Shown here: positions 12,948-44,520 of the stretch, piece after piece
Layout: each line of letters begins with the position of its first letter
How positions within the stretch are numbered: position 1 is the stretch's first letter
Assembly (NCBI GenBank): GCA_046331385.1
Contig: JAXLQW010000001.1
Location: forward strand, 3,580,366 to 3,644,365
Direction: 5' to 3'
Length of the DNA: 64,000 nucleotides
DNA from: Thermoanaerobaculia bacterium
GTDB taxonomy: Bacteria; Acidobacteriota; Thermoanaerobaculia; Multivoradales; JAGPDF01
Made by a program: the position numbers and the translations under genes
The notes under the pieces: generated by a model
Database searches by the model: none
What the model was told of the DNA's origin: nothing
What the model saw: only the letters and a program-made list of their open reading frames with translations

Positions 12948-12950
12948 GGG

Positions 12951-15371: not shown

Positions 15372-15394
15372 CGGTCTCTCCTGGCGCGTCGAAT

Positions 15395-17887: not shown

Positions 17888-17915
17888 CGCGGCTCTCCTC
17901 TCGGAATCGTCGGGC

Positions 17916-20354: not shown

Positions 20355-20369
20355 GACGATTCCTCCGGG

Positions 20370-22808
20370 CTATTCGCTGCGCAGGACGGCGATGGGCTCG
20401 GTGCGCGCCGCGGCGAGCGCCGGTCCGAGGCCGGCGCCGACGGCGACCGCGGCGATGAAGAGAGCGACGGCAATCCAGGTGGCCGGGTCGAGCGGACTCA
20501 CTCCGGCGAGCTGGCTGGCGACCAGGCGCGACAGCGCCGCGCCGCCTGCGAGGCCGGCCGCGAGGCCGATCGCCGCCAGGACGACCGCCTCCGAGAGGAT
20601 CCAGCGCGCGATGCGCGGCGCGGTGGCGCCGATCGCCATGCGCACGCCCACTTCGCGCGCGCGTTGCGTGACCAGGAAGGCGACCAGCGCGTAGAGCCCG
20701 GTCGCCGACAGGAAGATGGCGAGGGTCGCGAAGGCGCCCACCATCCACAGCGTCAGGCGGCGGTCGGCGAGCGACGCGGAGAGCACCTCGTCGAGGGTGA
20801 GGAGGGTGTGCACCGGCTGCTGCGGCGCGATCTCGCGCACCGCCGCGCGCACCGCGGCGGCGAGGCTCGAAGTCGGCAGCGCCGAGCGCACCACCAACAC
20901 GATGTCGTTGGCGAACATGTTGGCGACCCGCGGATCGGTGGCGAGGAAGGTGAGCTCCGGCAGCGACTCCTGTTCGAGGCCGCCCTGGCGCACGTCGCCC
21001 ACCACGCCGACGATCGTGACGTAGTCCTCGCCGCCGAAGCGGACGCGGCGGCCGAGAACGTCGCCCGCCGGGAAATGGCGGCGGACGAAGGCCTGGTTGA
21101 CCAGGCAGGGCGCCGGCGAGCGATCGTCTTGCGAGGCCGCGGCGTCGCTGGCGGCGAGGAAGCGCCCGGCCTTGAGCGGCACGCCGAGGGCGCGGAAGGC
21201 GTCGGCGCTCGCGGCCCGCGTCTCGACCCACCATTCCTCGCCCGCCGGCGGCGCCTGCAGGCCCTCGATGGTGTACGAGGTGTTGCGCCCCCAGTTCTGT
21301 ATCGGCAACAGCGAAACCACGCCCGCCGACTCGACCCCGGGCAGCGCCGAGAGCCGATCGAGCATCGGCGCGAGGAGCGTCGCGCCGACCGTGCCGTTCG
21401 CCACCATCCGCTCGTCGGGCGACAGGTGGAGGGTCAGCACGCCGACGCGATCGAAGCCCGGGGAGACGCCCTGCAGATGGAAGAAGGTGCGCAGCAGCAG
21501 TCCGGCGCCGAGCAGGAGGGTGGTCGAGAGCGCCACCTGCGCCGTGACCAGCGTCCGCCGCGCGCGCTGGCGACCGCGACCCCCAGTGGCGCGCAGGCCG
21601 CTCTCGACCAGCTCGCGGGCGAGTTGGTCGCGCGACAGGGCGAGGGTCGGGGCGAGACCGAAGAGCAGTCCCGTCGCGCCGCCGATCGCGAGCAGGAAGG
21701 CGAACGCCGCGAAGTCGATGCGCAGGGCGCCGAGGTCGGGCAGCAGCTGGGCGACGCGCGGCGCGAGCCAGGCGAGCAGCCCGCGCGCCACCGCTACCGC
21801 CAGCACCAGGCCGGCCGCGGTCAGCAGCAGGTTCTCGACCGCGAGCTGGCGAACGACCTGGAAGCGCGACGCGCCGAGCGCGGCGCGGATCGACATCTCG
21901 CGCTGGCGGGCGGCGGCGCGAGCGAGAGCGAGACCGGCGAGGTTGGCGCAGGCGATCGCCAGCACCGCACCGACCGCGCCGAAGAGCAGCAGCAGCGTCG
22001 GCCGGATCGAGCCGCGGATCGCCTCGGTCAGCGGCAGGACGCGCACCCCGCGCCCGGTCTGCGCGTCGGGGTACTCCATTTCGAGCCGGGCGGCGATCTC
22101 CTCGAGCTGCTTCCTGCCGCGCTCGATCGGCACGCCGGGGGCGAGCTTGCCGAGCACGCCGAGGTAGTGCTCGCCGCGCATCTCGGCGAGCTCGCCCGGC
22201 AGGTGCGGCAGGTAGAGATCCACCTTGGCGCCGTAGGTCGGATAGCGGAAGGAATCGGGAAGCACGCCGACGACGACGTGGGCGACGCCGTCGAGCACCA
22301 GCGGCCGGCCGACGACGCCGGGATCGGCGCCGAAGCGCCGGCGCCAGAAGCGCTCGGCGAGCACCGCCACGCGGCTCGACTCCGGGCGCTCGTCGTCGGC
22401 GGTGAACAGGCGGCCGACGATCGGCCGCGCGCCGAGCACCGAGAAGAGCGAGGCAGTGGATTCGAGCGCCGGCAGGCGCTCCGGGTCGCCCGCGCCCTGC
22501 AAGTTGCGGCTGGCGGCGGTGTAGGCGGCGAGCGCCGCGAAGGAGTCGGCGCGCGCGCTCCAGTCGCGGAAATTGGGCGCCGAAGCCGTGCCGAAGCCGG
22601 CGTCGTGGCTGTAGGTTTCCCAGATCCGCACCAAGCGATCGGAGTCGGGGTAGGGCAGCGGCGCGATCAGCTCGCGGTGGACGACCGAGAAAATCGCCAC
22701 GTTCGCCCCGACGCCGAGGGCGAGAATGGCGACCACCGCGATGGCGTAGCCCGGGACGCGGGCGAGCGAGCGCAGAGCGACGCGGAACTCCGCCAGGAGC
22801 GCGGACAC
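20370..22808 (-). CDS. ADOP-type ABC permease, paralog A. It is the first of the array in transcription order.
   Basis: The 812-aa ORF starts MSALLAEFRVALRSLARVPGYAIAVVAILALGVGANVAIFSVVHRELIAPLPYPDSDRLV and ends in IAVLRSE. Confidence 0.85.
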   Translation of the reverse strand: MSALLAEFRVALRSLARVPGYAIAVVAILALGVGANVAIFSVVHRELIAPLPYPDSDRLVRIWETYSHDAGFGTASAPNFRDWSARADSFAALAAYTAASRNLQGAGDPERLPALESTASLFSVLGARPIVGRLFTADDERPESSRVAVLAERFWRRRFGADPGVVGRPLVLDGVAHVVVGVLPDSFRYPTYGAKVDLYLPHLPGELAEMRGEHYLGVLGKLAPGVPIERGRKQLEEIAARLEMEYPDAQTGRGVRVLPLTEAIRGSIRPTLLLLFGAVGAVLAIACANLAGLALARAAARQREMSIRAALGASRFQVVRQLAVENLLLTAAGLVLAVAVARGLLAWLAPRVAQLLPDLGALRIDFAAFAFLLAIGGATGLLFGLAPTLALSRDQLARELVESGLRATGGRGRQRARRTLVTAQVALSTTLLLGAGLLLRTFFHLQGVSPGFDRVGVLTLHLSPDERMVANGTVGATLLAPMLDRLSALPGVESAGVVSLLPIQNWGRNTSYTIEGLQAPPAGEEWWVETRAASADAFRALGVPLKAGRFLAASDAAASQDDRSPAPCLVNQAFVRRHFPAGDVLGRRVRFGGEDYVTIVGVVGDVRQGGLEQESLPELTFLATDPRVANMFANDIVLVVRSALPTSSLAAAVRAAVREIAPQQPVHTLLTLDEVLSASLADRRLTLWMVGAFATLAIFLSATGLYALVAFLVTQRAREVGVRMAIGATAPRIARWILSEAVVLAAIGLAAGLAGGAALSRLVASQLAGVSPLDPATWIAVALFIAAVAVGAGLGPALAAARTEPIAVLRSE

Positions 22809-26655: not shown

Positions 26656-27558
26656 TCAGTAGATCTGCTTGCCGAGCAGACTGGTGGCGAGCCCGACCAG
26701 GGTGTTGGCGGTCAGGTTCTCGCGGTCGAGGATCGGATTGACCTCGACCAGATCGAGGCTGGTGACCCGCCCCGAGTCGGCGAGCAGCTCCATCAACAGA
26801 TGGGCCTCGCGGTAGGTGAGGCCGCCCGGCACGGGCGTTCCGACCCCCGGCGCGACCTCCGGGTCGAGCACGTCGGCGTCGAAGGAGACGTGCAGGCGGT
26901 CGACGCCGGCGAGGCGACCGAGCGCCATCTCGGCGACGCGCGCGATCCCCGAGCGGTCGATGTCGGTCATCGTGTGCACGGTGACCCCGGCGGCGCGCAT
27001 CAGCCGCTTCTCCTCGCCGTCGAGATCGCGGATGCCGATCAGCACGACGTCTTCCGGCCGGATCTTCGCCCCCGGCCAGGCGAGGTCGACCAGCCGCGAC
27101 TCGCCGACGCCGCACAGGGCGGCGAGCGGCATGCCGTGGATGTTGCCCGAGGGCGAGGTCGCCGGGGTGTTGAAGTCGCCGTGGGCGTCGACCCACAGCA
27201 CGCCGGTGCGCCGCCGCCGCGAGCAGCCGGTGACCGAGCCCATGGCGATCGAGTGATCGCCGCCGAGGACCACCGGGAAGACGTCGTCGTCGAGCTCGAG
27301 CAGCGCCCGGGCGGCGCTCTGGCAAGCGGCGCGGATCGCCTCGAGGAAGGCCATGCCGCCGCCGGGGCCCGAGTGCGGCAGGTCGAGCTCCTCGGCCCCG
27401 GGCACGTCGATGTCGCCGAGATCGTGCACCGCGTGGCCGAGGGCCTCGAAGCTCTCCTGCAGCCGGCCGTAGCGCAGGGCCGACGGACCCATGTCCACCC
27501 CGCGCCGCCCCTGCCCGAGGTCCATCGGCATGCCGAGGATCGCGATCCGCTTCGCCAT
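26656..27558 (-). CDS. Arginase-family ureohydrolase (arginase, agmatinase or formiminoglutamase fold). Its size favours arginase.
   Basis: The 300-aa ORF carries the Mn-binding motifs GGDHSIAMG, DAHGDFNT and SFDADVLDP. Confidence 0.8.
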   Translation of the reverse strand: MAKRIAILGMPMDLGQGRRGVDMGPSALRYGRLQESFEALGHAVHDLGDIDVPGAEELDLPHSGPGGGMAFLEAIRAACQSAARALLELDDDVFPVVLGGDHSIAMGSVTGCSRRRRTGVLWVDAHGDFNTPATSPSGNIHGMPLAALCGVGESRLVDLAWPGAKIRPEDVVLIGIRDLDGEEKRLMRAAGVTVHTMTDIDRSGIARVAEMALGRLAGVDRLHVSFDADVLDPEVAPGVGTPVPGGLTYREAHLLMELLADSGRVTSLDLVEVNPILDRENLTANTLVGLATSLLGKQIY

Positions 27559-27611
27559 AGGCCGCGGATCCTAGCGCGAGGCCCCGTGACGAGGCACTTC
27601 GAGGACCGGGG

Positions 27612-29657
27612 CTATGGGCAGGTCGCGAACGCGGAAGCGTCGAGGATGGGCTCGAACGGGTGCCCCGAAGCGTTGTCGTAGATCCTGGTCTCGTGCGCCA
27701 CGGTGTCTTCGACGGTCAGATGCACGCCGACGTCGGTCAATCCGGCCGTGTAGACCCAGTAGCGCTCGTAGGGCACGCAGGCGTCGAGCACTTTGACGAA
27801 GAGCTCGAGGTTGTCCGCGCCGAAGAACCAGAAGCTGCCGCTGTCGGGCGTGAGCGGCACGGCGGAGGCCTGGCCGGCCAGGCCGACCGCGCTCGCGAAG
27901 GTCGCCGAGACACGGAAACGCGCTCGATTGAGGCAGAGATGGGTCGAGTCCGCCGCGCAGGAGCCTTCGATCGCATCGGGCCGCAGCTCGGCGCCCGGGC
28001 CAGGACGCTCGCCGGTGCCCTGGGCCGAGCTCCGAAGCGCGGCCGCTTGGGGGTTCAGCCCTTGGGAGGAAGGTGCCACGGCGTCGCAGACGGGGAGCGC
28101 GAGAACGTCCTGGATGGGCGGGAACGGAGTGCCGAGCACGGTGTCGCGGATCCAGGTCCTGCCGCTCCAAGTGTCGATCACGCCGAGGGTGACTTCGACG
28201 TCGGTCAACCCGGCGGCGTAGACCCAGAAGTTCTCGTCGACGCCGCAGCCGTCGAGGATCTTGACCACGACTTCGAGGTTGTCGGCGCCGAAGAACCAGA
28301 ACCCGCCCGTGTCGGCCGTGAGCGGCACCGGATGTCCCGCGCCCTCGTCGCCCTGGGGCGTCCGCCACAGCGTACAGACCTCGAAGCGCCCACCGCCCAG
28401 ACGCAAGCGTTCGGCCCCCGGAGCACAACCGCGGAAGTACCGCCGCGCGGCAACGTCGAGCGTTCCGACCTCGGGGTCGAGGGAGTCGGCCTCCCAGGTG
28501 ACGACGAAGGCGCCCGAGTCGGAGAGCGCGACGAAGGGCCAGCTGTCGGCACGCTCGGCGCGCGTTATGTCGTCCGAGATCAATACTTCATCCCCGGCCG
28601 GCGAGCCTTCGGAACGGAAGAGACGGGCGTAGACGTCTTGGGACCGCCCTGCCTCGCCATCCGTCTTCCATGCGATGACGAAGTGACCCGCCGCATCCGA
28701 GGACAGGCTTGGCTGGTACCGATCGACCGCAGACGTTTCGCTTACAGGAACTTCCCCGGAGAGTGGACTTCCTCCAGAGGAGAAGATCCGGAATACGACG
28801 TCGTAGATTGCGGACTCCGAAGTTTCTCCTTCCCAGACGGCGACGAAGCGCTCCCCAGGGAGAGCCGCCACCCACGGTACATACTGAGGCCCATTCGATC
28901 CCGCAGCCAGTTCGAACTCCGGCGAGAGTGCCACACCCTCCGGGTCGAAGATTCGGCCCTTAACGTCGAAGCCAGCGGCGTTTTCATCCGCCCAGACGAT
29001 CATTGCCTTACCAGACGGTGACCGGGCAATCCGCGGAAGCGATGAGCCGAACTGCGGCGCGAACTCATTCACGGCGAGCAGGTCGGTGAGGGGGACCCCA
29101 TTCGCGTCGAAGCGACGAATGAAAATCTTGGCCACATCGTCTATTGGTGCCGCGAGCAGCGAACAGGCCGCGGTGACCGAAAACCCACCGTCGCCCAAAG
29201 CCGCGATTCTCGGGGCGGAACACTGATATTCGGGTCCGTGGATTGGAATTGGCTCTCCTCCTCGAGTGCCGTCGGCCAGGAGCGGAAGCACCGCCTCTCC
29301 AGACAATTCGAGGTAACCCGCGTACCAACCACCGTCTGGCTTCGATACAACGCACGTCAGCCCTTCTGCGCCGTCCGGGTGATCGCTGAGGAGCAAGTCC
29401 GGTCCCAGGGATCCATCTAGATTCAGGAACGTTGCTACCTCTCCAAAGAGGGGTTCATGGAAATTACCGAAAGCCAGGAGGGCCCGCCCCGAGCCGTCAA
29501 TCGAGATCGAGGACGGCCATTGAAGTCCAGTCGTGACTGGCGGGACTGCCGTCAGCGGCCCCAACGGAACTTGGGCTGCCAGCGGTCCATTTTGGCTAAC
29601 GATTGCACCGATTACAGCCAACGCGGACCGGCAGCAAGACGAGACGCAGATTCTCAA
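27612..29657 (-). CDS. Secreted repeat protein. The N-terminal half is built of ~45-aa Trp-containing beta-propeller-like repeats. The C-terminal part carries two tandem copies of an uncharacterised ~100-aa Cys-containing domain, the second ending in ...AFATCP.
   Basis: The 681-aa ORF has a signal-peptide-like N-terminus (MRICVSSCCRSALAVIGAIVSQNGPLAAQ). The repeats read AMIVWADENAAGFDVKGRIFDPEGVAL, RFVAVWEGETSESAIYDVVFRIFSSGGSPL, HFVIAWKTDGEAGRSQDVYARLFRSEGSPAGDEVLIS and AFVVTWEADSLDPEVGTLDVAARRYF. The two C-terminal domains are RFEVCTLW...FWFFGADNLEVVVKILDGC...YWVYAAGLTDVEVTL...PVCD and RFRVSATF...FWFFGADNLELFVKVLDAC...YWVYTAGLTDVGVHLTV...AFATCP. The gene spans a sharp GC or codon-usage break near 28640. 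Confidence 0.6.
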   Translation of the reverse strand: MRICVSSCCRSALAVIGAIVSQNGPLAAQVPLGPLTAVPPVTTGLQWPSSISIDGSGRALLAFGNFHEPLFGEVATFLNLDGSLGPDLLLSDHPDGAEGLTCVVSKPDGGWYAGYLELSGEAVLPLLADGTRGGEPIPIHGPEYQCSAPRIAALGDGGFSVTAACSLLAAPIDDVAKIFIRRFDANGVPLTDLLAVNEFAPQFGSSLPRIARSPSGKAMIVWADENAAGFDVKGRIFDPEGVALSPEFELAAGSNGPQYVPWVAALPGERFVAVWEGETSESAIYDVVFRIFSSGGSPLSGEVPVSETSAVDRYQPSLSSDAAGHFVIAWKTDGEAGRSQDVYARLFRSEGSPAGDEVLISDDITRAERADSWPFVALSDSGAFVVTWEADSLDPEVGTLDVAARRYFRGCAPGAERLRLGGGRFEVCTLWRTPQGDEGAGHPVPLTADTGGFWFFGADNLEVVVKILDGCGVDENFWVYAAGLTDVEVTLGVIDTWSGRTWIRDTVLGTPFPPIQDVLALPVCDAVAPSSQGLNPQAAALRSSAQGTGERPGPGAELRPDAIEGSCAADSTHLCLNRARFRVSATFASAVGLAGQASAVPLTPDSGSFWFFGADNLELFVKVLDACVPYERYWVYTAGLTDVGVHLTVEDTVAHETRIYDNASGHPFEPILDASAFATCP

Positions 29658-32600
29658 CCCCTACACTCCTCGTCAGTCCGTCGACGATCAGAACCGGCCA
29701 GAACTGTTCCCCTTGCTCTTGCCTCGCCCATCGAACTCCTCCCACACCAGGTGAAGAACGTTGATGTCATCCACCCACAAGGAGTGAAGCCAGATATTCC
29801 CAGTCACCTGTCGGGCCTCGTTCGTCGAGTGTCGGCCGCTCGATCTCGCGGTCGAGACCTCTCGGTATCGAACGCTAGCCGAGTTCGTCATCCTGTTGAA
29901 GATCTCCCAGGCAACAAAGCATCGCCCCGACGTACCACAGGCAATTCTTGGGTGGCGAGGTTCTCCGCTTGAGCCTCCGTCAACGAGGGCCGGCGCTGCC
30001 AGGGAGTTTCCGGCTTGAGAAACGTCGTCGATCACGAGCTGACTGGAGCCTGTCGCAGGATCCCGCTGGACCCATGAGACCCAGGCTTGCTCGCCTTCGC
30101 CGACCGCGGAGCTAGGCCAAAGTTGGTCCATAGACCCGGTCGAGGCGACCGAGAAGGAATCTCCAAGCGCTTCTCCGTTGGCGTTCAGCCACCTCGCCAT
30201 CACAGTAGCCAAGCCTCCATACGTATTTCGGTTCTCCCAGGTGACCAAGAAGTCCCCGGACGGTGCCTGAGAAGCGTGCGCCCACCTAGGCAGCTCCGAA
30301 TCAGCTTCCTCAACAACAATCGGCGAGAGAATCTCTTTTCCATCGGAGTCGATCGCTTGGGCCCAGAGGGCCCGCGTCCCCTCATCGTTCGATCCGACCC
30401 ACGTGGAGAGCGCCGTACCGCCAGCCCCTTCAGCTGAGCTTCCAGCCGCTAGGCCGGAATTCGGCTGCACCACGAGAACAAAGTCGTCGCTGCCAACAGT
30501 TCCAGGCGCGCCGGCCCACCGAAAGTCCCAAGTATTCCCGGAGACGAATGTCTGAATCAGAGAGTCCTGTCCTGCGAAGCCCGTCCTTGGATTGAACAGG
30601 TAGGCCGAGAAACTGGTCTCGAATCCGACACCCGACAGGTTGATGCGGGCCTTGTCGTTGTGCGGCAGATAGACGACCAGATGATCGGAGTCCCTAGCGA
30701 GGACCATCTGATGGTAGGAGTCTTGAGTTGCATTGTTCTTGATCCTGGATGACTGGCCAGTCTGTTCGTTCGCGACGAGGGTCCAGTAGTCGAGTTGACG
30801 AATGGCATCGCCGAGGTAGCGCTCCGGGTTGCTTGTGGCCGAGGTGCAGATCGTCTGCCACCATGTCTTGTAGTGGTCTTGCGCAACCAAGTTGTGGGGC
30901 CCGGGGCAGTCCTGCGCGGAAGTTGCCCAAGCAGGAATCGGAGTTCTGCCGCAGACCCCCCATTCCCAGAGCCCGACGGAACCAAAGCTGAAGCCGGTCG
31001 CGCCGCTTAGCCAGCTCGTGTACCCAGCTTGGCGCGCTCGAAAGAAATTCCAATCCTGCGGCACGCCTGACGCCGTGGTCGACGTTGGGTAACCCCAGTC
31101 GTAGACAGGCTCGACGTTGACGAGCGGTTTCTTTGGGTTCGCATAGGCCCCTTGAGTCGAGTACCGGACGGTCTGCGGAATTGTCTTCGCGCGAGAAGTC
31201 ATGGCCACGAGGTCCCCACCGTTGTGGCCGCTCTGGAAGCCGTGCAGATTGAGCCATGTGCTGTCATGTACTGGCGCCATTTGATTCGTAGTGATGGTGC
31301 CATGGTGATCTGCAATCATCGGATAGGTCGCGCTCAAGGAGCGAATTGCCCCGCCCGCTATATCCTCGACCGCCTCGACGGTTCGCCCGGGATTGTCCGG
31401 GCCGCAGGAGTAGCCATCCTCGCAGGCTGACGGATTGTTGTCGAAGCCCGGCGAGAGAATCACGAAGTTTCCACGTGTTCGGGCCGCAAGATTTCGAGCG
31501 AAGTCTTCGATCGCTGGGGACGCAGGGTAGGCCTCGTAGGGCGCCGACACGCCGGTAATGTAGACCATGATGCCCTGCTCGTTCGCGTATTCGATCATCG
31601 AATCGAAGCGATCCCAGAAGGCAGGGACCCATCTGGACATACAGTTCGGCCTTGTATTCTCGCGATCGTAGAGCGGGTTCCGATCGTCTGGTGCATGCGT
31701 ATAGGGGCAGGCACCGGCGAGCTCCTCGAAGGGTGGTGCGGGTGTGCCGGCGGCGTTGAGCGGGCCCCAATAAGGGCTCGACGCTTCCTGACCTGCCCAA
31801 GGTGGAATGAGTGCGAGGTGCACGACCGTGAAGCCGTTAGATTTTCGGTTGTCGATGTAAGTCTTCCACTCGTTGCTGCAAGCCTGCGTCGTGGCCATCC
31901 AGGCGGTGTCGCCGTGCCAAAAGAAGTAGGAGCCGTCGTAGTGGTTCGGGGGCAACTGCGTGACTATCCCGGTTCCTCCTTCCACGATCGAGCTCTGGAC
32001 GATCATTCCTTTGTCGTAGAGCGGGTTTCCTGAGGGCGGGCCCACGTTGACGGTAACCAGGCCGCTGGTGACAAGGCCGGCGTCGGTGTTGCAGGGTTGC
32101 GATGGAAGTGAGCTGGAGCAGGTGCTGGACCAATTCCAGGTTCCGGGGAAGGGACCGAAAGCCATGCGAAAGATGAAGCGATCGTGGACCCCGTCAGCGG
32201 CTTTCCCCGCCCAATACGCCAGAGTCCTGTATCGATAGGCCGGGTTCTGACTCCAGGTCAAGTTGATGGTGACCACGACGTCCCGATAGCCGTTCGAGAA
32301 GCTGCCGCTGCTCGTGAGCTCCTTCTGCCAGCATCGCCACTGAAGCGGCGAGCCAGCTGAGCAAGTCGGCAGCGCGGAAGCGTTGTTGCACGACGGCGTC
32401 GAGCCCCCACTGCAGCCGGATCCCTGGGCCAACACTTCGCAGCAGGAGAGCAGGGATGCGAGCAAGACGCAGCTGGAAACGAAATGTCGAGCCTTGGCAT
32501 GATTTCCGAACATTTCTCGGCCTCCGAAGCTGAGCTCAATACCCTCATGGAGAGCTCGCTAGTTTGTGCTCCCACCAGTGGCTTCTCTTTCGTGCTCCGA

Positions 32601-32780
32601 CACCACGTGTTGCACGCAAGAGCCTCTAGGAGAATCCAGGGCGTCGATGCGACTGTGAAGCGCGTATCGAAGACAGTCGCCACCCGTTCGGGTGGCGCTG
32701 AAAAGCCTGCGAGGCGGGCGGTAGGGCGCCTGGAAACTACAACTGCGCTCGGTAGGCCGTGATGCTCGCTGGGCGGGACG
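28640..32780. other. Compositionally atypical lower-GC segment (about 4.1 kb), a putative horizontally acquired island.
   Basis: By eye the segment has clearly lower GC than the ~70% flanks. Third codon positions are frequently A or T (aat, cat, ttt, gga, tca, aca), whereas flanking genes are almost exclusively G/C-ending. The left edge falls inside CDS 27612..29657, and the right edge falls in the intergenic region before moaB. Confidence 0.5.
29688..32513 (-). CDS. Secreted Cys/Ser/Thr/Trp-rich protein: signal peptide, a putative TIM-barrel glycoside-hydrolase-like core (DUF4038/GH140-like 'FFWHGDTAW' motif), and a C-terminal region of the same Trp-containing repeats as the downstream gene.
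   Basis: The 941-aa ORF has the signal MFGNHAKARHFVSSCVLLASLLSCCEVLAQ. The core includes YDGSYFFWHGDTAWMATTQ...GFTVVHLALIPPW...DRFDSMIEYANEQGIMVYITGV. The C-terminal repeats are FLVTWENRNTYGGLATVMARWLNANGEALGDSF, AWVSWVQRDPATGSS and CFVAWEIFNRMTNSASV. The whole gene lies inside the low-GC island. The hydrolase family assignment is from memory of the motif only. Confidence 0.5.
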   Translation of the reverse strand: MFGNHAKARHFVSSCVLLASLLSCCEVLAQGSGCSGGSTPSCNNASALPTCSAGSPLQWRCWQKELTSSGSFSNGYRDVVVTINLTWSQNPAYRYRTLAYWAGKAADGVHDRFIFRMAFGPFPGTWNWSSTCSSSLPSQPCNTDAGLVTSGLVTVNVGPPSGNPLYDKGMIVQSSIVEGGTGIVTQLPPNHYDGSYFFWHGDTAWMATTQACSNEWKTYIDNRKSNGFTVVHLALIPPWAGQEASSPYWGPLNAAGTPAPPFEELAGACPYTHAPDDRNPLYDRENTRPNCMSRWVPAFWDRFDSMIEYANEQGIMVYITGVSAPYEAYPASPAIEDFARNLAARTRGNFVILSPGFDNNPSACEDGYSCGPDNPGRTVEAVEDIAGGAIRSLSATYPMIADHHGTITTNQMAPVHDSTWLNLHGFQSGHNGGDLVAMTSRAKTIPQTVRYSTQGAYANPKKPLVNVEPVYDWGYPTSTTASGVPQDWNFFRARQAGYTSWLSGATGFSFGSVGLWEWGVCGRTPIPAWATSAQDCPGPHNLVAQDHYKTWWQTICTSATSNPERYLGDAIRQLDYWTLVANEQTGQSSRIKNNATQDSYHQMVLARDSDHLVVYLPHNDKARINLSGVGFETSFSAYLFNPRTGFAGQDSLIQTFVSGNTWDFRWAGAPGTVGSDDFVLVVQPNSGLAAGSSAEGAGGTALSTWVGSNDEGTRALWAQAIDSDGKEILSPIVVEEADSELPRWAHASQAPSGDFLVTWENRNTYGGLATVMARWLNANGEALGDSFSVASTGSMDQLWPSSAVGEGEQAWVSWVQRDPATGSSQLVIDDVSQAGNSLAAPALVDGGSSGEPRHPRIACGTSGRCFVAWEIFNRMTNSASVRYREVSTARSSGRHSTNEARQVTGNIWLHSLWVDDINVLHLVWEEFDGRGKSKGNSSGRF

Positions 32781-32844
32781 AGCCGGGGGTTCGGCAGAGG
32801 GCAGATGGGCATCTCGCGGTCGGGGCCCGTGCTAGCTTCGCGGT

Positions 32845-33354
32845 GTGGGAGTCGAGGAGCATCGGGCGGCGGCGAAGACGGCGCTGGGGTTCGCGGTGTT
32901 GACCGTGAGCGACACGCGCAACCGGGCGACCGACGAGGGTGGGGCGCTCGTGGCCGAGCTCGCGGTCGCGGCCGGGCATAGGGTGGTCGATCGCAAGATC
33001 GTGCTCGACGAGGCCGACGCCATCCGCGGCGCGGTCGCTTCGGCGCTCGCCGACCGAGCGACCGACGTGGTGATCGCCACCGGCGGCACCGGCCTCTCGC
33101 CGCGCGACGTCACGGTCGAGGCGGTGCGGCCGCTCTTCGAACGCGAGATCGAGGGCTTCGGCGAGCTTTTCCGGGTGAACTCCTGGAGCGAAGTCGGACC
33201 GGCGGCGATGCTCTCGCGCGCCACCGCCGGCCTGGCGCGCGGCAAGGCGATCTTCCTCCTGCCCGGTTCCCCGAAGGCGGTACGGCTGGCGATGGAGAAA
33301 CTGATCCTGCCCGAAGCCGGGCACCTGCTCGCCCAGGCGCGACGCGCCGACTGA
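32845..33354 (+). CDS. moaB: Molybdenum cofactor biosynthesis protein B (MoaB/MogA family).
   Basis: The 169-aa ORF reads LGFAVLTVSDTRN...VIATGGTGLSPRDVTVEAVRPLFEREIEGFGELFR...IFLLPGSPKAVRLAMEKLILPE. It aligns along its full length with E. coli MoaB (GGTG and the EGFGE motif). Confidence 0.8.
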   Translation: MGVEEHRAAAKTALGFAVLTVSDTRNRATDEGGALVAELAVAAGHRVVDRKIVLDEADAIRGAVASALADRATDVVIATGGTGLSPRDVTVEAVRPLFEREIEGFGELFRVNSWSEVGPAAMLSRATAGLARGKAIFLLPGSPKAVRLAMEKLILPEAGHLLAQARRAD

Positions 33355-33402
33355 GGCGCGAGCCCCGCCGCCAGAGACGCCGCCGGGCGCCCCGCCCGAG
33401 AT

Positions 33403-33681
33403 CTACTTCGAGTCCCCTCCCCGCAGCAGGCGCAGGACGAGCAGGAAGAGGAGCGCGCCCAGCGTGGCGACGATCAGGCTGTGGACGTCGAAGCCCGCGA
33501 AACCGCCGAAGCCGAGCAACGTGGCGACGAAGCCGCCGACGATCGAGCCCACGATGCCGGTCGCGAGCGTCATGAAGCAGCCCATCTTGTCGCGGCCGGG
33601 GAGGAAGAAGCGCGCCAGGGCACCGGCGAGCAGACCCATCAGGATCCACGAGAAGAGACCCATCATCGCGAATTTCGGCAT
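33403..33681 (-). CDS. GlsB/YeaQ/YmgE-family small membrane stress-response protein (transglycosylase-associated protein family).
   Basis: The 92-aa ORF reads MGLFSWILMGLLAGALARFFLPGRDKMGCFMTLATGIVGSIVGGFVATLLGFGG...HSLIVATLGALLFLLVLRLLRG. This is the typical family signature. Confidence 0.8.
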   Translation of the reverse strand: MPKFAMMGLFSWILMGLLAGALARFFLPGRDKMGCFMTLATGIVGSIVGGFVATLLGFGGFAGFDVHSLIVATLGALLFLLVLRLLRGGDSK

Positions 33682-33783
33682 CGGATCCTCCTTGTCGACG
33701 GGGAGTGTAGCCGAGGGCCGGGCGACCCGCGGCGGGCGCGGGCGCGGCGGGCGGCGAGCGCCCGCCTGCTAGGCTCGGGCGCG

Positions 33784-36423
33784 ATGTCCGCGCGCCCGAA
33801 ACTGATCCTGATCGACGGCTACAACAACATCTTCCGGGCCTTCTACGCCATCCGGAACCTGTCCAATTCGAAAGGCCTGCCGACCAACGCGGTCTACGGT
33901 TTCGTCCAGATGCTGCGCAAGATGCTGCGCGACGAGAAGCCCGACTTCGTCGGCATCGCGCTCGACCTCGGCGAGCCGACCGTGCGCAGCGACAAGTTCG
34001 CCGACTACAAGGCCAACCGCGCCCCGATGCCCGAGGACCTGCGGCCGCAGATCCCGTACGTGCGGCGCGCGATCGAGGCCTTCCGCATCCCGATCCTCGA
34101 GCTCGAGAGCTACGAGGCCGACGACGTCCTCGGCACCCTGGCGAAGAAGGCCGCCGCCGCCGGCTACGAGGTCGAGCTGGTCTCGGCCGACAAGGACCTG
34201 ATGCAGCTCGTGGCGCCGCACGTCTCGGTTCTCCACTCCGGGCGCGGCAAGCGCTACGACGAGGCGGCGGTCGAAGAGGAGTGGGGCGTGCCGCCGGCGA
34301 AGGTGATCGACGTTCTGGCGCTGATGGGCGACGCGGTCGACAACGTGCCGGGAGTGCCGGGGATCGGCGAGAAAGGCGCCAAGCAGCTCGTCGCCGAGCA
34401 CGGCTCGGTCGAGGCGCTGCTCGACAAGGCAAGCGAGATCCCGCGCAAGGCCTACCGCGAGGGGTTGCAGACGCACCGCGAGCAGGCGCTGCTGTCGAAA
34501 GAGCTGGTGACCATCCACACGAACCTGCCGGTCGAGCTCGAGCCCGAACTGCTGCGACTCGACCCGCCGGACGTCGAGGCGCTGCGCGCGCTCTACGGCG
34601 AGCTCGAGTTCCACACCCTGCTCGCGGAGCTCGGTGCCCCCGAGCGCGCCGACGCCCCACCGCCGGGAACCGACGGGCTCGCCGAGCTCGCCGACCCCGA
34701 AGCGGTGCGGGCGGCCTTCGCGGCGCTCCCCGGCCGCTGGGCGGTGGCGCTCGCCGGCGGCGCGCCGGCGGCGCTGGCGATCGGCGGGGCGGACGGCGGG
34801 CCGATCGACTGGCTCGACCTGCGGCGGCCGGAGCTGCGCGCGGCGGCCGCGGCGGCGCTCGTCGAGCGCTGCGCGCGCTCGGGCGACGAGATCGTCGGCC
34901 ACGATCTCAAGGAGCTGCTCCGCCTGGCCGGCGTCGGCCGCCGTTGCGGCGCGCGGCTCTTCGACCTGATGCTCGCCTCCTACCTGTCGCGCCCCTCGCT
35001 CCACGGCCACACGCTCGAGGAGATCGCGACCGAGAAGCTCGCCGCGGCGTCGCGCTCGGCCAAGGACGCGGGATTCGACAAGGGCCAGGAACCGGCGCTC
35101 GGCGACCCACGCCTCGGCGCCTGGGCCGGCGAGCGGCTCGAGCTCGCGCGCCGGCTCGCCCCACGGCTGGCCGAGGACCTCGCCGAGGGGCGCCTGCGCG
35201 AGGTCTTCGACACCATCGAGATCCCGCTCGTGCCGGTCCTGGTGGCGATGGAGGAGGCGGGGATCCTGCTCGACCTGCCCTTTCTCGCCGCGTTCTCCTC
35301 CGAGCTCGGCGCCGAGCTCGCGGCGCTCGAGGCGGCGATCTACGAGCTCGCCGGCGAGCGCTTCAACATCCAGTCGCCGCAGCAGCTCGGGACGATCCTG
35401 TTCGAGAAGCTGAAGCTGCCGGCCCGGCGGCGGACGCAGAAGACCAAGAGCTACTCGACCGACGCCGAGACCCTCGAGGAGCTCGCAGCCGCCGGGCACG
35501 AGCTACCGCAGAAGCTGCTGCGTTACCGCGAGCACTCGAAGCTCAAGTCGACCTACGTCGACGCCCTGCCGGCGATCGCCGGCGAGGACGGCCGGGTGCG
35601 TACGCGCTATCAACAGGCGGTGGCGGCGACCGGCCGGCTCTCCTCGGTCAACCCCAACCTGCAGAACATCCCGATCCGCACCGAGCTCGGCGGACGGATC
35701 CGGCGCGCGTTCCGCGCACCGGACGGCTTCCTGCTCGTGGCCGCCGACTACAGCCAGATCGAGCTGCGCCTCCTGGCCCACATCGCTCGCGAACCGGCGC
35801 TGATCGCGGCTTTCGCGAGCGGCGAGGACATCCACCGCGCGACCGCCGCGGCGGTGCTCGGGCTGGCGCCCGAGCTGGTGTCGGGCGAGCAGCGCCGCGC
35901 CGCCAAGGCGATCAATTTCGGCCTCATGTACGGCATGGGGGCTTTCGGACTGGCGACCCAACTCGGGATCTCGAAGCCCGAGGCCGAGTCCTTCATCGCC
36001 ACCTACTTCGCGCGCTACGGCGGCGTCCAGACCTACATGCGGGAGACCCTCGCCGAGGTCGAGAAGACCGGCCGGGTCGAGACCCTCTTCGGCCGCGTCC
36101 GCTACCTGCCGGACATTCAGTCGAAGAACTGGAACTTGCGCGAGAACGCCCGGCGGATGGCGATCAACGCCCGCATCCAGGGGACCGCGGCCGACCTGAT
36201 GAAGCTGGCGATGATCGCCGTCGACCGCCGCCTGGCCGCCGAGCACCCGCGGGCGCGCCTGCTGCTCTCGGTCCACGACGAGCTGGTGCTCGAGGCCCCG
36301 GCGGCGCAAGCCGAGGCGGTCGCCGCCCTGGTGAAGCGCGAGATGGAGGGGGTCGCCCGCCTCGCGGTCCCCCTGGTGGTCGACACCGGGATCGGTCCGA
36401 ACTGGGGAGAGGCCAAGAGCTAG
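33784..36423 (+). CDS. polA: DNA polymerase I.
   Basis: The true start is MSARPKLILIDGYNNIFRAFYA (5'-3' exonuclease N-terminus). Downstream are a 3'-5' exo-like domain and the polymerase motifs RRAAKAINFGLMYGM and LLSVHDELVLE. The protein is about 880 aa. The upstream 101 codons of the ORF are artefact. Confidence 0.95.
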   Translation: MSARPKLILIDGYNNIFRAFYAIRNLSNSKGLPTNAVYGFVQMLRKMLRDEKPDFVGIALDLGEPTVRSDKFADYKANRAPMPEDLRPQIPYVRRAIEAFRIPILELESYEADDVLGTLAKKAAAAGYEVELVSADKDLMQLVAPHVSVLHSGRGKRYDEAAVEEEWGVPPAKVIDVLALMGDAVDNVPGVPGIGEKGAKQLVAEHGSVEALLDKASEIPRKAYREGLQTHREQALLSKELVTIHTNLPVELEPELLRLDPPDVEALRALYGELEFHTLLAELGAPERADAPPPGTDGLAELADPEAVRAAFAALPGRWAVALAGGAPAALAIGGADGGPIDWLDLRRPELRAAAAAALVERCARSGDEIVGHDLKELLRLAGVGRRCGARLFDLMLASYLSRPSLHGHTLEEIATEKLAAASRSAKDAGFDKGQEPALGDPRLGAWAGERLELARRLAPRLAEDLAEGRLREVFDTIEIPLVPVLVAMEEAGILLDLPFLAAFSSELGAELAALEAAIYELAGERFNIQSPQQLGTILFEKLKLPARRRTQKTKSYSTDAETLEELAAAGHELPQKLLRYREHSKLKSTYVDALPAIAGEDGRVRTRYQQAVAATGRLSSVNPNLQNIPIRTELGGRIRRAFRAPDGFLLVAADYSQIELRLLAHIAREPALIAAFASGEDIHRATAAAVLGLAPELVSGEQRRAAKAINFGLMYGMGAFGLATQLGISKPEAESFIATYFARYGGVQTYMRETLAEVEKTGRVETLFGRVRYLPDIQSKNWNLRENARRMAINARIQGTAADLMKLAMIAVDRRLAAEHPRARLLLSVHDELVLEAPAAQAEAVAALVKREMEGVARLAVPLVVDTGIGPNWGEAKS

Positions 36424-36512: not shown

Positions 36513-37337
36513 ATGCTTCGCCGACTCCTTCCGCTGCTGCTCCTCGCCGCCCTCGCCGCTCCACCGGCCGGGGCGACCGCCGGGTTCTCCTTCTACGGCA
36601 CGACGCTCACCAACCGGACCTTCAACCGGCCGAACACCGACTTGACGACCCTGTCGGGCAAGACGACCCAGTACCACCAGCAGGCGTTCTTCGTGAACTC
36701 GGCGGCGGTCTGCGACCTGCGCAGCGCCCAAGAGGGGACTTTCGACGGCCTGATCTACCTCTACCGGGGCGCCTTCGACCCCACCTCGCCGTTGGTCAAC
36801 CTGATCGCCGCCAACGACAACGGCGGACTCGGCGTGGGGACCTCGGACCTCGCCGGAGTCGCGCTCGGCGCCGATCAGAGCTACTACCTGATCACCACCT
36901 CGGTCGAGCCGGCGGTGACCGGCAACTTCACCAATTTCGTCGAGTGCAGCGGGGCGACCCGCATCCTCGCCGGCGACGGCGCCATGCCGTCGCTCGACGG
37001 GCGCTATTCGGAGCTCAACCGCGGGCGATTCCGCATCAGCGCCACCTGGAAGGACTTCCAGGGCCATACCGGCAACGGCACCTTCGTGCCCCTCGGCTCG
37101 GAGGATTCGGGCATCCTCTGGTTCTTCTCGCCCTCGAACTTCGAGGTGATGATCAAGATCCTGAACGGCTGCGACCTGAACAACCGCTACTGGGTCTTCT
37201 ACGCCGCGCTGACCACGGTCGAGTTCCACTTGACGGTCTACGACACCTTCGCCGAGGTCACCAAGACCTACGACAACGCGCTCGGCGTCTCGGCGCAGGC
37301 GACGACCGACACCGCCGCCTTCGCCACCTGCCCCTAG
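36513..37337 (+). CDS. Small secreted protein with an unknown N-terminal domain and one copy of the same uncharacterised C-terminal '...AFATCP' domain found twice in CDS 27612..29657.
   Basis: The 274-aa ORF has the signal peptide MLRRLLPLLLLAALAAPPAGATAG. The C-terminal 100 aa are RFRISATWKDFQGHTGNGTFVPLGSEDSGILWFFSPSNFEVMIKILNGCDLNNRYWVFYAALTTVEFHLTVYDTF...YDNALG...DTAAFATCP. This region is colinear with both domain copies of the 681-aa protein. Confidence 0.6.
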   Translation: MLRRLLPLLLLAALAAPPAGATAGFSFYGTTLTNRTFNRPNTDLTTLSGKTTQYHQQAFFVNSAAVCDLRSAQEGTFDGLIYLYRGAFDPTSPLVNLIAANDNGGLGVGTSDLAGVALGADQSYYLITTSVEPAVTGNFTNFVECSGATRILAGDGAMPSLDGRYSELNRGRFRISATWKDFQGHTGNGTFVPLGSEDSGILWFFSPSNFEVMIKILNGCDLNNRYWVFYAALTTVEFHLTVYDTFAEVTKTYDNALGVSAQATTDTAAFATCP

Positions 37338-42384: not shown

Positions 42385-44520
42385 TCAGGGCGCGGGGGCG
42401 ACGCGAAAGGCGGCGAGGGCGCGCGAGCTGGCGGCGATCTCGAGCGGGAAGCGCCGCGGATCGGCCATCGCCCAGCGGCACTCGAGCGACCAGGGGTATC
42501 CGCACACGAGGAGGTCCACCTTCGCGGAGCGCAGGCGGGCGAGCCAGGATTCGGGATCCGCGGCGGCCGCCAGCTTCGCCCCGTCGGCGTAGCTGACGAT
42601 TCTTCCGTCGCGGGTCGGCGGTACGTACAGAAGCCGGTTCTGCAGGCGCGATCCCAGCAGCGGATAGCGGCACCAATTCTGACCCGCGATCAGGTCCCAG
42701 CCCCATGAGGCGGCCACCGAAAGCGGCCGGTCGCCATCCAGGTGCGCCCAGACCGCCGCGGCTCCCGGGGGCGCGAGCACCTGGATGGGGTGGGCGTCGA
42801 ATGCGGCCTCGCGGTCGTCGAGGGCGCGCCGGTAGGAGACTTCGCGCCGGGTGGCGCGCAGCGCGTCGATCCAGATCACCGCGGCGAGGAGCGATGCGAC
42901 GACCGCGCCGGCGACCAGGCGGCGCTCGCCTCCGGCCAGACGGCGGCGGAAGACCGCGAGGGCCAGCGCCAGCACCGCGACGACAGTGAGCGGCGCCGCG
43001 GCCGGCGCGAGATCCGCGAGGGTGAAGCCGAGCGGCCAGGCGGAAAGCAAGTCGAGGGCGATCGCCAAGGCGCAGAGCGGAGCGGCGACGGTGGCCGGCA
43101 ACAGCGCGACCGCGGCCGCGGCGAGCGCCGGCGCTTGCAGCAACAGGCGGCCGTTGACGTCCCACCACAGCGGGCTGCGCAGCGCGGCGAGCTGCGGCGA
43201 GAAGACCGCCGCGAGCGGCCAGAGCGCGAGGCCGAGGACGAGGATCGACCGCCACCTCGCGCCGTGCCGGGCCGGTTGCAGCGCGGCGCCGAGGAGCGTC
43301 ACGGCGCCGAGCCCAGCGAGCAGCGCGCCGCCCCAGCCGAAGTTGAGGTGCGGCCAGGTCGGAAAGGCGCGCCCGCGGAAGAGACGCAACAGGAACTCCA
43401 GGTTGTCCGGCGGCACCAATGGGTGCGCCAGCGCATGGACGAACGCCGGATCGCCGTGGGCGAGCGTCCGGCCGAGAATGCGGGCTTCGAACGGCGCGCT
43501 CCACGATCCCGTCCAGACGACGCCCCAGACGAGCGGCGCCGCGGCGAGCGCCAGCGGTGCGAGCGCCGGCAGCAGCCGCCGGCGGAGCCGGGCGCGCGGC
43601 AGCGAACCTGACCGGGCGAGCACCACCGCGGCGGCGAAGCCGAGAGCCGGGAAGCTCATCGACTTGCTGTCGGAGAGCAGCGCGAATCCGAAGAGAGCGA
43701 AGAGGGCGTCGCCGCTTCGCCGCGTACGGAGGAAGCGCAGCAGGAAGAGGGTGCCCACCAGCGCCCACGCGGAGGCGAGATCGTCGACATAGGCGGTGGT
43801 GGCGAAGCGCAGCGCTGCCGGCAGGCTGCCGGTCGCGCCGGCCACCGCGGCGGCGACCGGTGGCGCGCCGCCGAGCTCGCGGGCGAGGGCGTAGACGGCG
43901 AAGACCAGGAAGAAGAAAGCGCCGACCGTCGCTAGAACCAGGAGCGTGTCCGAGTGGGTCGCGGCGAGCATCCAGGCCCACAGCGCATCGCCGCCGGGTG
44001 CGAAGTGCTCGTAGTAGCCGACGGCGTCGGGGCCCGGCACCGGTGCCCACGAACCGGTCTGCAGCCAACGCGCGGCGCGCACCAGGTGATAGGTGAGGGC
44101 ATCCCACGCCAGCGGCGGTCCGACCAGGGCGCGCAGCGCGAGCGGTGCGACGAGGAGCACGGGCGCGAGCGCCAGCGCTCCGGGAAACCGTCGCGTGACC
44201 GCGAGCGCCTGGCGCGCGCTCGCGCCCAGCGCCTTGCCGATCTCGGAGCGCGCCGCGGCGCCGCCCCACAGCCGTTCGGCGATCGTCCAGGCCGCCAAGG
44301 CGCCGGCGCCGACCGAGGCGAGCGAGAAGACCCCGAGCGCGCCGCTGGCGAAGAAGAGGGTGAGGTAGAGAGCCGTCGCCGCAGCGAGCGAGGCGGCGAG
44401 AAACGGCACCCGCTCCGCGGTGCCGAGCGCCCGGCGAGCGACGAGCGCTCCCGTCCCGGCGAGCGCGGCGCTTGCCGCACCCCAGAAGAGTAGGCGCGCC
44501 GCGAGCGCGAGGACGCTCAT
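42385..44520 (-). CDS. Large polytopic membrane protein with a periplasmic C-terminal domain. It is possibly a GT-C-fold glycosyltransferase (ArnT/PMT-like), but this is uncertain.
   Basis: The start was chosen at the internal MSVLALAARLLFWGAASAALAG; the upstream 119 codons are R/P-rich artefact. The first ~450 aa contain more than 10 hydrophobic helices, followed by a soluble ~250-aa C-terminus. No diagnostic motif was confidently recognised. Confidence 0.45.
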   Translation of the reverse strand: MSVLALAARLLFWGAASAALAGTGALVARRALGTAERVPFLAASLAAATALYLTLFFASGALGVFSLASVGAGALAAWTIAERLWGGAAARSEIGKALGASARQALAVTRRFPGALALAPVLLVAPLALRALVGPPLAWDALTYHLVRAARWLQTGSWAPVPGPDAVGYYEHFAPGGDALWAWMLAATHSDTLLVLATVGAFFFLVFAVYALARELGGAPPVAAAVAGATGSLPAALRFATTAYVDDLASAWALVGTLFLLRFLRTRRSGDALFALFGFALLSDSKSMSFPALGFAAAVVLARSGSLPRARLRRRLLPALAPLALAAAPLVWGVVWTGSWSAPFEARILGRTLAHGDPAFVHALAHPLVPPDNLEFLLRLFRGRAFPTWPHLNFGWGGALLAGLGAVTLLGAALQPARHGARWRSILVLGLALWPLAAVFSPQLAALRSPLWWDVNGRLLLQAPALAAAAVALLPATVAAPLCALAIALDLLSAWPLGFTLADLAPAAAPLTVVAVLALALAVFRRRLAGGERRLVAGAVVASLLAAVIWIDALRATRREVSYRRALDDREAAFDAHPIQVLAPPGAAAVWAHLDGDRPLSVAASWGWDLIAGQNWCRYPLLGSRLQNRLLYVPPTRDGRIVSYADGAKLAAAADPESWLARLRSAKVDLLVCGYPWSLECRWAMADPRRFPLEIAASSRALAAFRVAPAP

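Follow-up and report, generated by a model that had tools for sequence, protein, structure and literature searches.

The present study analyzes a two-gene operon within a 64,000-nucleotide stretch of DNA (the window, whose coordinates are used for all positions below) from a Thermoanaerobaculia metagenome-assembled genome, on a contig of 4.52 Mb (locus tag U0X73_15180). The operon lies on the minus strand and consists of orf941, the gene of a putative secreted hydrolase resembling glycoside hydrolase family 140 (GH140), followed after 30 nt by orf681, the gene of a beta-propeller protein with tandem C-terminal domains; each gene has a Shine-Dalgarno sequence of its own. Along the window the genes stand in the order MacB/FtsX permease array, ABC ATPase, HlyD-like protein, Ser/Thr kinase, arginase, orf681, orf941, MoaB-like protein, PolA, a conserved 274-aa protein and a second kinase (coordinates in Table 1). 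Genes of the orf941 type are called Api in what follows, those of the orf681 type P68x, and the pair of them the cassette. The operon was gained recently as a unit between the arginase and moaB genes, and its low GC content at third codon positions (GC3) is better read as a trait of the cassette family than as the mark of a low-GC donor.

Table 1. Coordinates of the inserted operon, its parts and its flanks
Feature	Position	Strand	Remarks
Arginase-family gene, native left flank	26656..27558	-	Pfam PF00491, E 6.7e-78; GC3 0.96; 99% identical to P0320
Inserted segment, 5,250 bp	27576..32825		absent from the orthologous arginase/moaB spacer of close and distant relatives
Left direct-repeat copy CCCCGTG	27582..27588		one copy at each insert end, single in the empty site
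orf681	27612..29657	-	TTG start, AGGAG 8 nt upstream, signal-peptide-like N-terminus
orf681 C-terminal domain copy 2	27627..27941	-	residues 573-677
orf681 C-terminal domain copy 1	28095..28406	-	residues 418-521; beta-sandwich, conserved W-F-F...N-x-E...K..D core
orf681 beta-propeller	28434..29570	-	residues ~30-408 (AlphaFold2 strands); poorly conserved, mostly GC3-poor
GC3 change-point support interval	28539..28607	-	orf681 residues 350-373; synonymous GC3 0.64 upstream, 0.88 downstream
orf941	29688..32513	-	ATG start, GGAGG 8 nt upstream, signal-peptide-like N-terminus
orf941 C-terminal all-beta repeat region	29694..30416	-	residues ~700-940; homologue of the propeller repeats in orf681
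Collagen_bind_2-type beta-sandwich PF12904	30465..30740	-	residues 592-683; E 2.3e-6, 27.8 bits vs cutoff 22
Apiosidase-like catalytic domain PF13204	30783..31943	-	residues 191-577; Pfam E 3.6e-37
Inserted upstream non-coding region of the operon	32514..32825	-	GC ~0.6
Right direct-repeat copy CCCGTG	32826..32831		next to it, on the moaB side, the conserved CTAGCTT motif
MoaB-like molybdopterin-binding protein gene, native right flank	32845..33354	+	Pfam PF00994; GC3 0.90

Insertion into the arginase/moaB spacer

The segment from 27,576 to 32,825 is a recent gain of the complete operon into the spacer between arginase and moaB, and it includes the GC3-rich 3' 1 kb of orf681. The closest relatives, contigs L124, L125 and L126, were found by a protein search with the arginase (P0320, 99% identical; L124 is 46 kb long, from JGI 3300045389) and, in blastn, have ~18 kb of flanking sequence with 94-94.6% nucleotide identity to the window. 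Positions 9984-14933 of L124 align to 27575-22626 and positions 9462-9977 to 33341-32826, both at ~94% identity, with merely 6 bp between the aligned blocks in place of 27,576-32,825, and arginase and moaB are 42 bp apart in all three contigs. The site is likewise empty in L127-L129, where the arginase is 80% identical, and in L004 and L007, where the order is kinase and arginase, then moaB and polA, with ~50 bp between arginase and moaB; these last two came from a PolA-anchored scan of species-representative genomes in which relatives reached only ~70% PolA identity. Across L004, L007 and L127-L129 the arginase is 75-80% identical to that of the window. Arginase adjoins moaB in all eight relatives' contigs examined at the site, and in farther genomes it is an HlyD gene that neighbors moaB, again without the cassette. 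Because four separate lineages with different spacer sequences are empty, gain on the branch of the window is far more parsimonious than repeated precise deletion. Absence of the segment from orthologous loci, which the earlier note had proposed as a check and which is expected of a genomic islet, was thus found in L124-L126, L127-L129, L004 and L007. A chimeric assembly is made unlikely by an independently assembled Logan contig, L130 (SRR26348421), which matches 27616-34211 (6,596 bp) at 100% identity and runs through moaB, the right junction and the two genes. L130 ends at 27616, where the stop codon of orf681 is 4 nt and the left junction ~30-40 nt away, a break that could reflect an assembly-graph branch between filled and empty alleles in one sample. 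Outside the source population, no protein more than 47% identical to orf681 or orf941 was found among 5.8e9 sequences.

The junctions can be read directly from these comparisons. The empty site of L124-L126 runs ...CAT AGGCCGCGGATCCTAGC AATTG CCCCGTG CTAGCTTCGCGG..., the left junction of the window ...TAGC GCGAGG CCCCGTG ACGAGG... and the right junction ...GGTCGGGG CCCGTG CTAGCTT..., and the sequence CGTG(C/T)TAGCTT next to moaB is kept in L007, L124 and L127-L129. Only 23 nt separate the stop codon of orf681 from the junction repeat. Either a target-site duplication or illegitimate recombination by way of microhomology would be consistent with the CCC(C)GTG repeat. Neither longer direct repeats nor terminal inverted repeats were found at the ends of the insert, no tRNA, tmRNA or Rfam family occurs in the 64 kb, and no integrase, transposase or recombinase domain was detected in the two inserted open reading frames (ORFs) or their neighbors. 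The insert therefore lacks the terminal inverted repeats and transposase of an insertion sequence or transposon, only its short duplication being compatible with one, and it lacks the structured repeat (attC site) and integrase of an integron cassette, for which a length of 5.25 kb, two genes and an upstream region of their own would also be atypical. No plasmid or phage carriers or homologues of note were found for the cassette. Promoter-like and terminator-like sites are not in excess, the inserted upstream region has no sigma-70-like promoter and no Rfam match, and no upstream regulatory DNA is conserved among cassettes beyond hairpins derived from the flanks. The inserted non-coding DNA does contain a GC-rich hairpin at 32678-32697 (GCCACCCG-TTCG-GGTGGC), ~170 nt upstream of the orf941 start, with a T-run after it on neither strand and no Rfam match.

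Compositional anomaly

In 500-nt sliding windows the GC content is 0.59-0.63 from ~28,500 to ~32,750 as compared with 0.67-0.78 on either side; between ~28,570 and 32,825 it is ~0.60, against ~0.72. At third codon positions orf941 has a GC3 of 0.715, and orf681 ~0.57-0.75 (mostly 0.6-0.7) in residues 1-~350 and ~0.8-0.97 beyond, while the adjoining genes have 0.90-0.96. Expected synonymous GC3 (GC3s) was derived from the codon usage of 25 other genes of the window, given the amino-acid composition of each product. On this basis orf941 has a GC3s of 0.700 where 0.924 is expected (z = -25.5), residues 1-350 of orf681 have 0.640 where 0.927 is expected (z = -20.8) and residues 370-681 have 0.877 where 0.926 is expected (z = -3.2), with the 25 control genes spanning 0.85-0.96. 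Amino-acid composition is thereby ruled out as the cause of the GC dip, synonymous GC3 still being 21-25 standard deviations low. Tetranucleotide z-scores of the insert correlate with those of the remaining window sequence at 0.47, and those of its low-GC3 part at 0.33; for ten control chunks of equal size the value is 0.85 +/- 0.03 (minimum 0.79). In GC3, codon usage and oligonucleotides, then, the insert deviates from its host in the way that genomic islands do. One other patch, at 49,000-52,000, is equally GC-low at 1-kb resolution. It corresponds to a gene at 49007-52015 (-), GC 0.63, for a 1002-aa CarboxypepD_reg plus TonB-dependent-receptor-like outer-membrane protein; its GC3 is 0.92 and the dip is confined to codon positions 1 and 2, so amino-acid composition explains this patch and it is no island.

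Within orf681 a single maximum-likelihood change point places the GC3 step at residue 359 (likelihood ratio 51), in the last propeller blade and ~50 residues ahead of the domain border. GC3 and conservation go together along this gene: over 30-residue bins GC3 correlates with identity (Spearman 0.72 for the window, 0.81 for homologues), and in the poorly conserved inter-domain linker of P68x the GC3 of homologues falls to 0.71. A chimeric origin of orf681, with two unrelated families meeting at the GC3 step, was ruled out, since both halves have the same top homologues. As to a recent conversion of its C-terminal half by a paralogue in the same genome, no paralogue from the source contig was among the top 120 matches, and the in-window relative orf274 is only ~44% identical.

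These results bear on what the earlier note had said from the sequence of the window. It had described a lower-GC segment of different codon usage, provided that amino-acid composition was not responsible, and had proposed tetranucleotide comparison as a check; all of this holds. Its edges, at 28,640 and 32,780, are near the ones found here, the left one standing against a GC3 step at 28,539-28,607 and the right one against an edge at 32,825/32,826. The right edge does lie in the spacer before moaB, and integrase and tRNA are absent from the edges as it had stated. The left edge had been placed within coding sequence, but the insertion ends just past the stop codon of orf681, and the inserted DNA itself contains the step at ~28,570. 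Accordingly, the description of the segment as the whole hydrolase-like gene plus the 5' half of the next fits the low-GC3 part only, the insert taking in all of orf681. Its statement that no obvious direct repeats mark the edges has to be given up in view of CCCCGTG at 27,582-27,588 and CCCGTG at 32,826-32,831, present as a single copy in the empty site.

The two proteins

Homologues of orf681 are 657-691 aa long and cover 95-99% of its length. The AlphaFold2 model, built on a 41-sequence alignment (mean predicted local distance difference test score, pLDDT, 87.6; predicted template modeling score 0.88), has a signal helix, a closed propeller of seven blades with 3-4 strands each, and two beta-sandwich domains joined by a disordered linker. 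Foldseek gave a probability of 1.00 to several solved propellers, with template modeling scores by target of 0.4-0.7, and returned CylK (7fh6), the PL42 lyase 7esn, BT3686 (5muk) and the lectin 6gxs at E ~1e-9 to 2e-7 and 9-13% identity. These matches are generic; several are to carbohydrate-active proteins, including sialidase-like ones, and the fold search is dominated by the propeller. Conservation is uneven: identity to the best homologues is 33-36% in residues 1-405, and to the closest ones 72-77% in residues 406-540 and mostly 57-62%, with a maximum of 70%, in residues 541-681; the C-terminal part overall is mostly 54-62% identical to homologues, 65% for the closest. The two C-terminal domain copies are linked by a 133-nt repeat with 81% identity (27728-27860 and 28196-28328). 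The domain comprises ~110-120 residues with flanking Cys, and the proteins that carry it are very diverse. It falls into 8,827 clusters at 50% identity, is usually in tandem and, among the matches listed, often C-terminal. No Pfam model exists for it, and it looks like an abundant unannotated family, possibly with a role in anchoring or glycan binding. A single copy is found in the 274-aa protein encoded downstream of polA (36513-37337, +).

For orf941, homologues are 925-943 aa long with 95-99% coverage, and an identical 941-aa product was called on L130. The earlier note's view of this product as a secreted glycoside hydrolase-like protein is borne out by the Pfam match in Table 1, in which PF13204 scores 129 bits against a cutoff of 26.5 over profile positions 9-319 of 320. 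Direct matches to the PDB (phmmer) are weak and partial: 4qfu (DUF4038) at E 3.2e-7, 8t9w (apiosidase) at E 2.2e-6 and 3kzs/5msy (glycoside hydrolase) at E 7.8e-6. Residues E468 and E517 are invariant in 11 orf941 homologues and are candidate catalytic residues only. The C-terminal tail, the only part to which the AlphaFold2 model gives a pLDDT of 72-88, consists of repeated 3-4-strand units, and its homology to the orf681 repeats shows in BLASTP of orf681 against orf941 (24% identity, E 2e-8). Judged from these similarities, orf941 would be a secreted hydrolase of the GH140-like (DUF4038) type that ends in propeller repeats, and together the two proteins probably bind and cleave an extracellular glycan.

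The products in NCBI are shorter, 528 aa (P0001) rather than 681 for orf681 and 862 aa (P0121) rather than 941 for orf941; MFN7942931.1 and MFN7942932.1 are 5' truncations of both island genes that remove the signal peptides. The longer forms are favored by homologue coverage, the Shine-Dalgarno sequences and the Logan gene call. The atypical codon usage probably misled public start prediction for both genes.

The cassette in other genomes

The closest homologues of orf681 and orf941 are 44-47% identical, and all are in GC-rich Thermoanaerobaculia or Acidobacteriota (locus GC 0.65-0.72). Api and P68x lie side by side and in the same orientation in at least three unrelated settings: between arginase and moaB in this window, between penicillin amidase and peptidase S51 genes in L001, L116-118 and L121, and between sigma-70-r4 and Zn-peptidase genes in L119/120, with further contexts in L122 and L123. 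In 9 of 10 contexts the GC3 of Api is under that of its own flanks, for example 0.65 against 0.86 in L001, 0.68 against 0.91 in L118, 0.73 against 0.91 in L121, 0.69 against 0.84 in L122, 0.75 against 0.94 in L123 and 0.71 against 0.92 in L085. P68x has a GC3 of 0.75-0.83 in homologues, and its N-terminal part is below its C-terminal part in 6 of the 7 tested (not in L119), with a strong step only in L002 and L122. Low GC3 as a general property of DUF4038 genes was ruled out, since distant DUF4038 genes without the partner gene match the GC3 of their flanks. Host codon usage is near-identical across cassette genomes (r = 0.98-0.99), and the codon preferences of the island are those of the host in weaker form, with a correlation of relative synonymous codon usage of 0.80. 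Third-position frequencies of A/C/G/T are.13/.39/.31/.17 in the island and.13/.38/.31/.19 in the Api of L118. There is no shared cassette-specific tetranucleotide signature, the cassettes correlating poorly with one another (r 0.1-0.6) and with their hosts. Depressed GC3 thus belongs to the cassette family in particular and does not depend on the host, and it occurs in most of the GC-rich hosts sampled.

The same loci tell something of how the cassette is inherited. Among L001, L003 and L118 the cassette genes have 80-87% amino-acid identity and the flanks 80-93%, the excess identity at fourfold-degenerate sites is 0.43-0.65 for the cassette and 0.2-0.5 for the flanks, and the pair looks vertically inherited. 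Api keeps a GC of ~0.63 at these sites in both lineages despite the pair being as old as the flanks. Polarized fourfold-site changes from A/T to G/C (W>S) and from G/C to A/T (S>W) number 11 and 24 in Api, and 14 and 16 in the N-terminal half of P68x. On the other hand, L121 (10001-14967) and L118 (10001-14875) have flanks 86-96% identical and between them an Api only 29% and a P68x only 38% identical, and such divergent alleles between conserved flanks point to cassette replacement at a fixed locus. L003 is without Api and keeps P68x at 85-86% identity. L116-118 carry an extra methyltransferase gene at the penicillin-amidase/peptidase-S51 locus. At positions 3-527 of L122 a fragment of an rve_3 (integrase-core) transposase abuts a 5'-truncated Api, the sole mobility-related gene seen beside any cassette.

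Other features of the window

A second indel lies close to the insert: at 33342-33402, between the Transgly_assoc gene and moaB, L124 has 925 bp more (its positions 8537-9461), a module that L124-L126 share and the window is without, with two genes for an 86-aa ORF and a 195-aa DUF6036 protein and a GC3 of ~0.86. The neighborhood of moaB seems to be a hotspot of small indels. The PolA ORF (980 aa) extends ~100 codons farther upstream than PolA of relatives (877-879 aa), and the extension (33481-33784) runs into a Transgly_assoc-like gene of 92 aa encoded opposite to it (33403-33681, -); polA therefore probably begins near 33,780. MacB_PCD/FtsX permease paralogues of ~800 aa stand in tandem at 3178-5784 and 10554-22808 (-), followed by the ABC ATPase and the HlyD-like gene; blastn blocks suggest that L124 has one copy more of this array than the window, a copy-number variation between close relatives. 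Three ORFs at 42385-44877 (-), 45036-45428 (+) and 45876-46811 (+) have no Pfam match and GC3 values of 0.85, 0.82 and 0.79, the first with z = -10 against the flank expectation, and may be another, weaker accessory patch.

Comparison with known systems

Small genomic islets are alike in having atypical GC3, codon usage and tetranucleotide composition, in a presence that varies between genomes of 94% identity, in occupying an intergenic spacer, here with a short and perhaps coincidental direct repeat on either side, and in carrying cargo such as the secreted, carbohydrate-active proteins encoded here. The present insert differs from them in having no tRNA target, integrase, transposase or inverted repeats, and in a composition that is no donor signature, recurring as it does in most GC-rich hosts and being mosaic within one gene. 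A donor lineage of matching composition, as would be expected for an islet, was not found: the best homologues, at 44-47%, are in GC-rich genomes and are mostly atypical there too. With GH140/DUF4038 proteins, represented by the apiosidase BT1012 of Bacteroides thetaiotaomicron and by structures 5msy/3kzs, 8t9w and 4qfu, orf941 shares secretion, a near-whole PF13204 model followed by PF12904, and acidic residues (E468, E517) that are conserved within the cassette family. It differs from the solved members in that direct similarity to them is weak (E 1e-5 to 1e-7), in an extra Cys-rich N-terminal region and a propeller-repeat tail of ~240 residues, and in being always paired with a propeller protein.

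O-antigen and capsule clusters are hypervariable, horizontally exchanged surface-glycan loci whose GC content is below that of the genome. The cassette resembles them in its divergent alleles (29-38% identity) between conserved flanks, as in L121 and L118, in gene presence or absence between relatives and in a GC content lastingly below that of the host, but it has only two genes, a secreted hydrolase and a binding protein rather than biosynthetic functions, and it occurs at several loci. A different likeness is with the process of GC-biased gene conversion (PMC4450053), given the high GC3 of conserved, recombinable sequence, the low GC3 of divergent accessory sequence and the deficit of W>S changes in low-GC3 genes; the contrast seen here, however, is sub-genic, within one operon, and correlative only.

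Interpretation and alternative explanations

The feature is an ordinary accessory islet, if an unusually cleanly documented one. The account that we prefer, and to which we would give a probability of about 65%, is that of a recent accessory islet with a low GC3 that is family-wide and without the signature of a low-GC donor. Incoming DNA would have integrated by illegitimate, microhomology-mediated recombination into the divergent, ~45-bp spacer between arginase and moaB, from a donor presumably inside the accessory gene pool of the Thermoanaerobaculia. The operon family appears to circulate within this group at several unrelated loci, one of them with allele replacement and loss of a single gene. 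Low GC3 would then be a standing property of the variable parts of the family in most sampled GC-rich hosts, with no ongoing amelioration. As to its cause, it is possible that fast-diverging, rarely recombining segments escape the GC-favoring force that holds core genes at a GC3 of ~0.93, whether this is GC-biased gene conversion, codon selection or the two together, and that the strongly conserved C-terminal domains stay under it. A link between recombination and GC content through GC-biased gene conversion has been proposed for bacteria (Lassalle et al. 2015, PMC4450053).

Several observations weigh against this account. The flanking repeat is 6-7 bp long and GC-rich and could be coincidental, and the overall model of orf941 is poor (pLDDT 56). 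The trait is not universal, the catalytic part of Api in L119 being little depressed (0.85 vs 0.85), and Api has low GC3 throughout, with only a weak correlation of conservation and GC3 (rho 0.39, p 0.06). The GC3 step in orf681 of the window (likelihood ratio 51) is sharper than those of homologues, whose ratios are 7-28 and whose positions differ; it also comes before conservation rises, and may be an old, inherited recombination breakpoint that a family trait would not predict. The polarity tests depend on small counts and parsimony, and the excess of S>W changes is stronger still in flank genes (W>S 14, S>W 77), so that the result for Api shows only that there is no net W>S flux, i.e. no amelioration, and perhaps is partly an artefact of parsimony. 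Finally the donor is unsampled, which leaves room for one of moderately lower GC.

The earlier note had read the segment as a recent acquisition from a lower-GC donor to be traced by homology. The recency is upheld by the empty sites, but no low-GC donor lineage came out of the homology search, the best homologues (44-47%) all being in GC-rich Thermoanaerobaculia or Acidobacteriota. That the transfer came from a truly lower-GC donor, with low GC3 as a signature retained before amelioration, would accord with the recency of the insertion, with codon and tetranucleotide composition far from that of the host and with the distance to the nearest homologues, the donor itself being unsampled. A uniformly low-GC donor would nevertheless not be expected to leave a mosaic insert, in which ~320 codons of orf681 have a GC3s of 0.88 beside 0.64 upstream within one gene, nor would it account for sampled homologues that without exception reside in GC-rich genomes, for Api genes so regularly below their own flanks in GC3, for vertically inherited copies that retain low GC3 with no net W>S flux, or for codon preferences that are a diluted host pattern rather than another one. 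We regard this explanation as unlikely. It could instead be that low GC3 is adaptive, rare A/T-ending codons slowing translation for secretion or folding of the propeller and TIM-barrel domains or holding expression low; persistence of the trait across lineages and vertical descent, its restriction to the cassette clade as opposed to distant DUF4038 genes, and the secreted, multi-domain and beta-rich nature of both products are compatible with this. Yet GC3 is lowest where conservation is least and higher in the conserved domains, a pattern that fits relaxed constraint and not programmed slow translation, the poorly conserved linker is GC3-poor in homologues as well (0.71), and the catalytic domain of L119 shows no depression, all of which makes an adaptive origin quite improbable.

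The remaining alternatives concern the insertion itself. If the cassette were ancestral at this site, relatives could have lost it precisely through slippage from one CCC(C)GTG copy to the other, which would leave exactly the single-copy empty site that is observed, but several independent precise deletions would be needed to empty four lineages (L124-126, L127-129, L004, L007) with differing spacers, farther genomes have HlyD next to moaB without a cassette, homologous cassettes elsewhere occupy other loci, and populations of the L124 type gave no copy of either protein more than 90% identical in the protein collection. Ancestral presence is accordingly very improbable. Even less can be said for an artefact of assembly or binning that joined a foreign piece into the genome: the source is a metagenome-assembled genome and L130 does end, at 27616, near the left junction, but that independent contig is identical over 6,596 bp across moaB, the right junction and both genes, the source contig measures 4.52 Mb, the junctions are clean and both carry a short stretch of the target sequence, and the same pair with the same anomaly occurs in many other assemblies, so that we consider an artefact scarcely conceivable.

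Significance

Recent gain of the islet, with exact junctions and an empty-site reference, provides a clean, datable case of gene gain in an uncultured lineage of Acidobacteriota. It also calls for caution, as the compositional boundary and the boundary of the insertion are 1 kb apart. Low GC3 here neither names a low-GC donor nor times the transfer, because the same family is GC3-depressed in most GC-rich hosts, vertically inherited copies included. The cassette ties a GH140-like hydrolase to a propeller protein bearing an abundant, unannotated C-terminal domain (~8,800 clusters at 50% identity). The coupling of GC3 to conservation at a sub-genic scale, in a genome with a GC3 of 0.93, could help to separate gene conversion, codon selection and transfer history. 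More tentatively, and as an idea that we hold to be conceivable although probably not correct as it stands, the Api-P68x pair may be an exchangeable, diversifying, glycan-targeting cassette spread through the class Thermoanaerobaculia, in which variable modules (hydrolase and propeller) with alleles too divergent to recombine keep a GC3 far under that of the host and still-recombining C-terminal domains stay host-like. If true, it would be a natural, sub-genic case of recombination-dependent GC-biased gene conversion, and not mutation or donor history, setting GC3 in very GC-rich bacteria, and compositional islands in such genomes need not date transfers or reveal their source.

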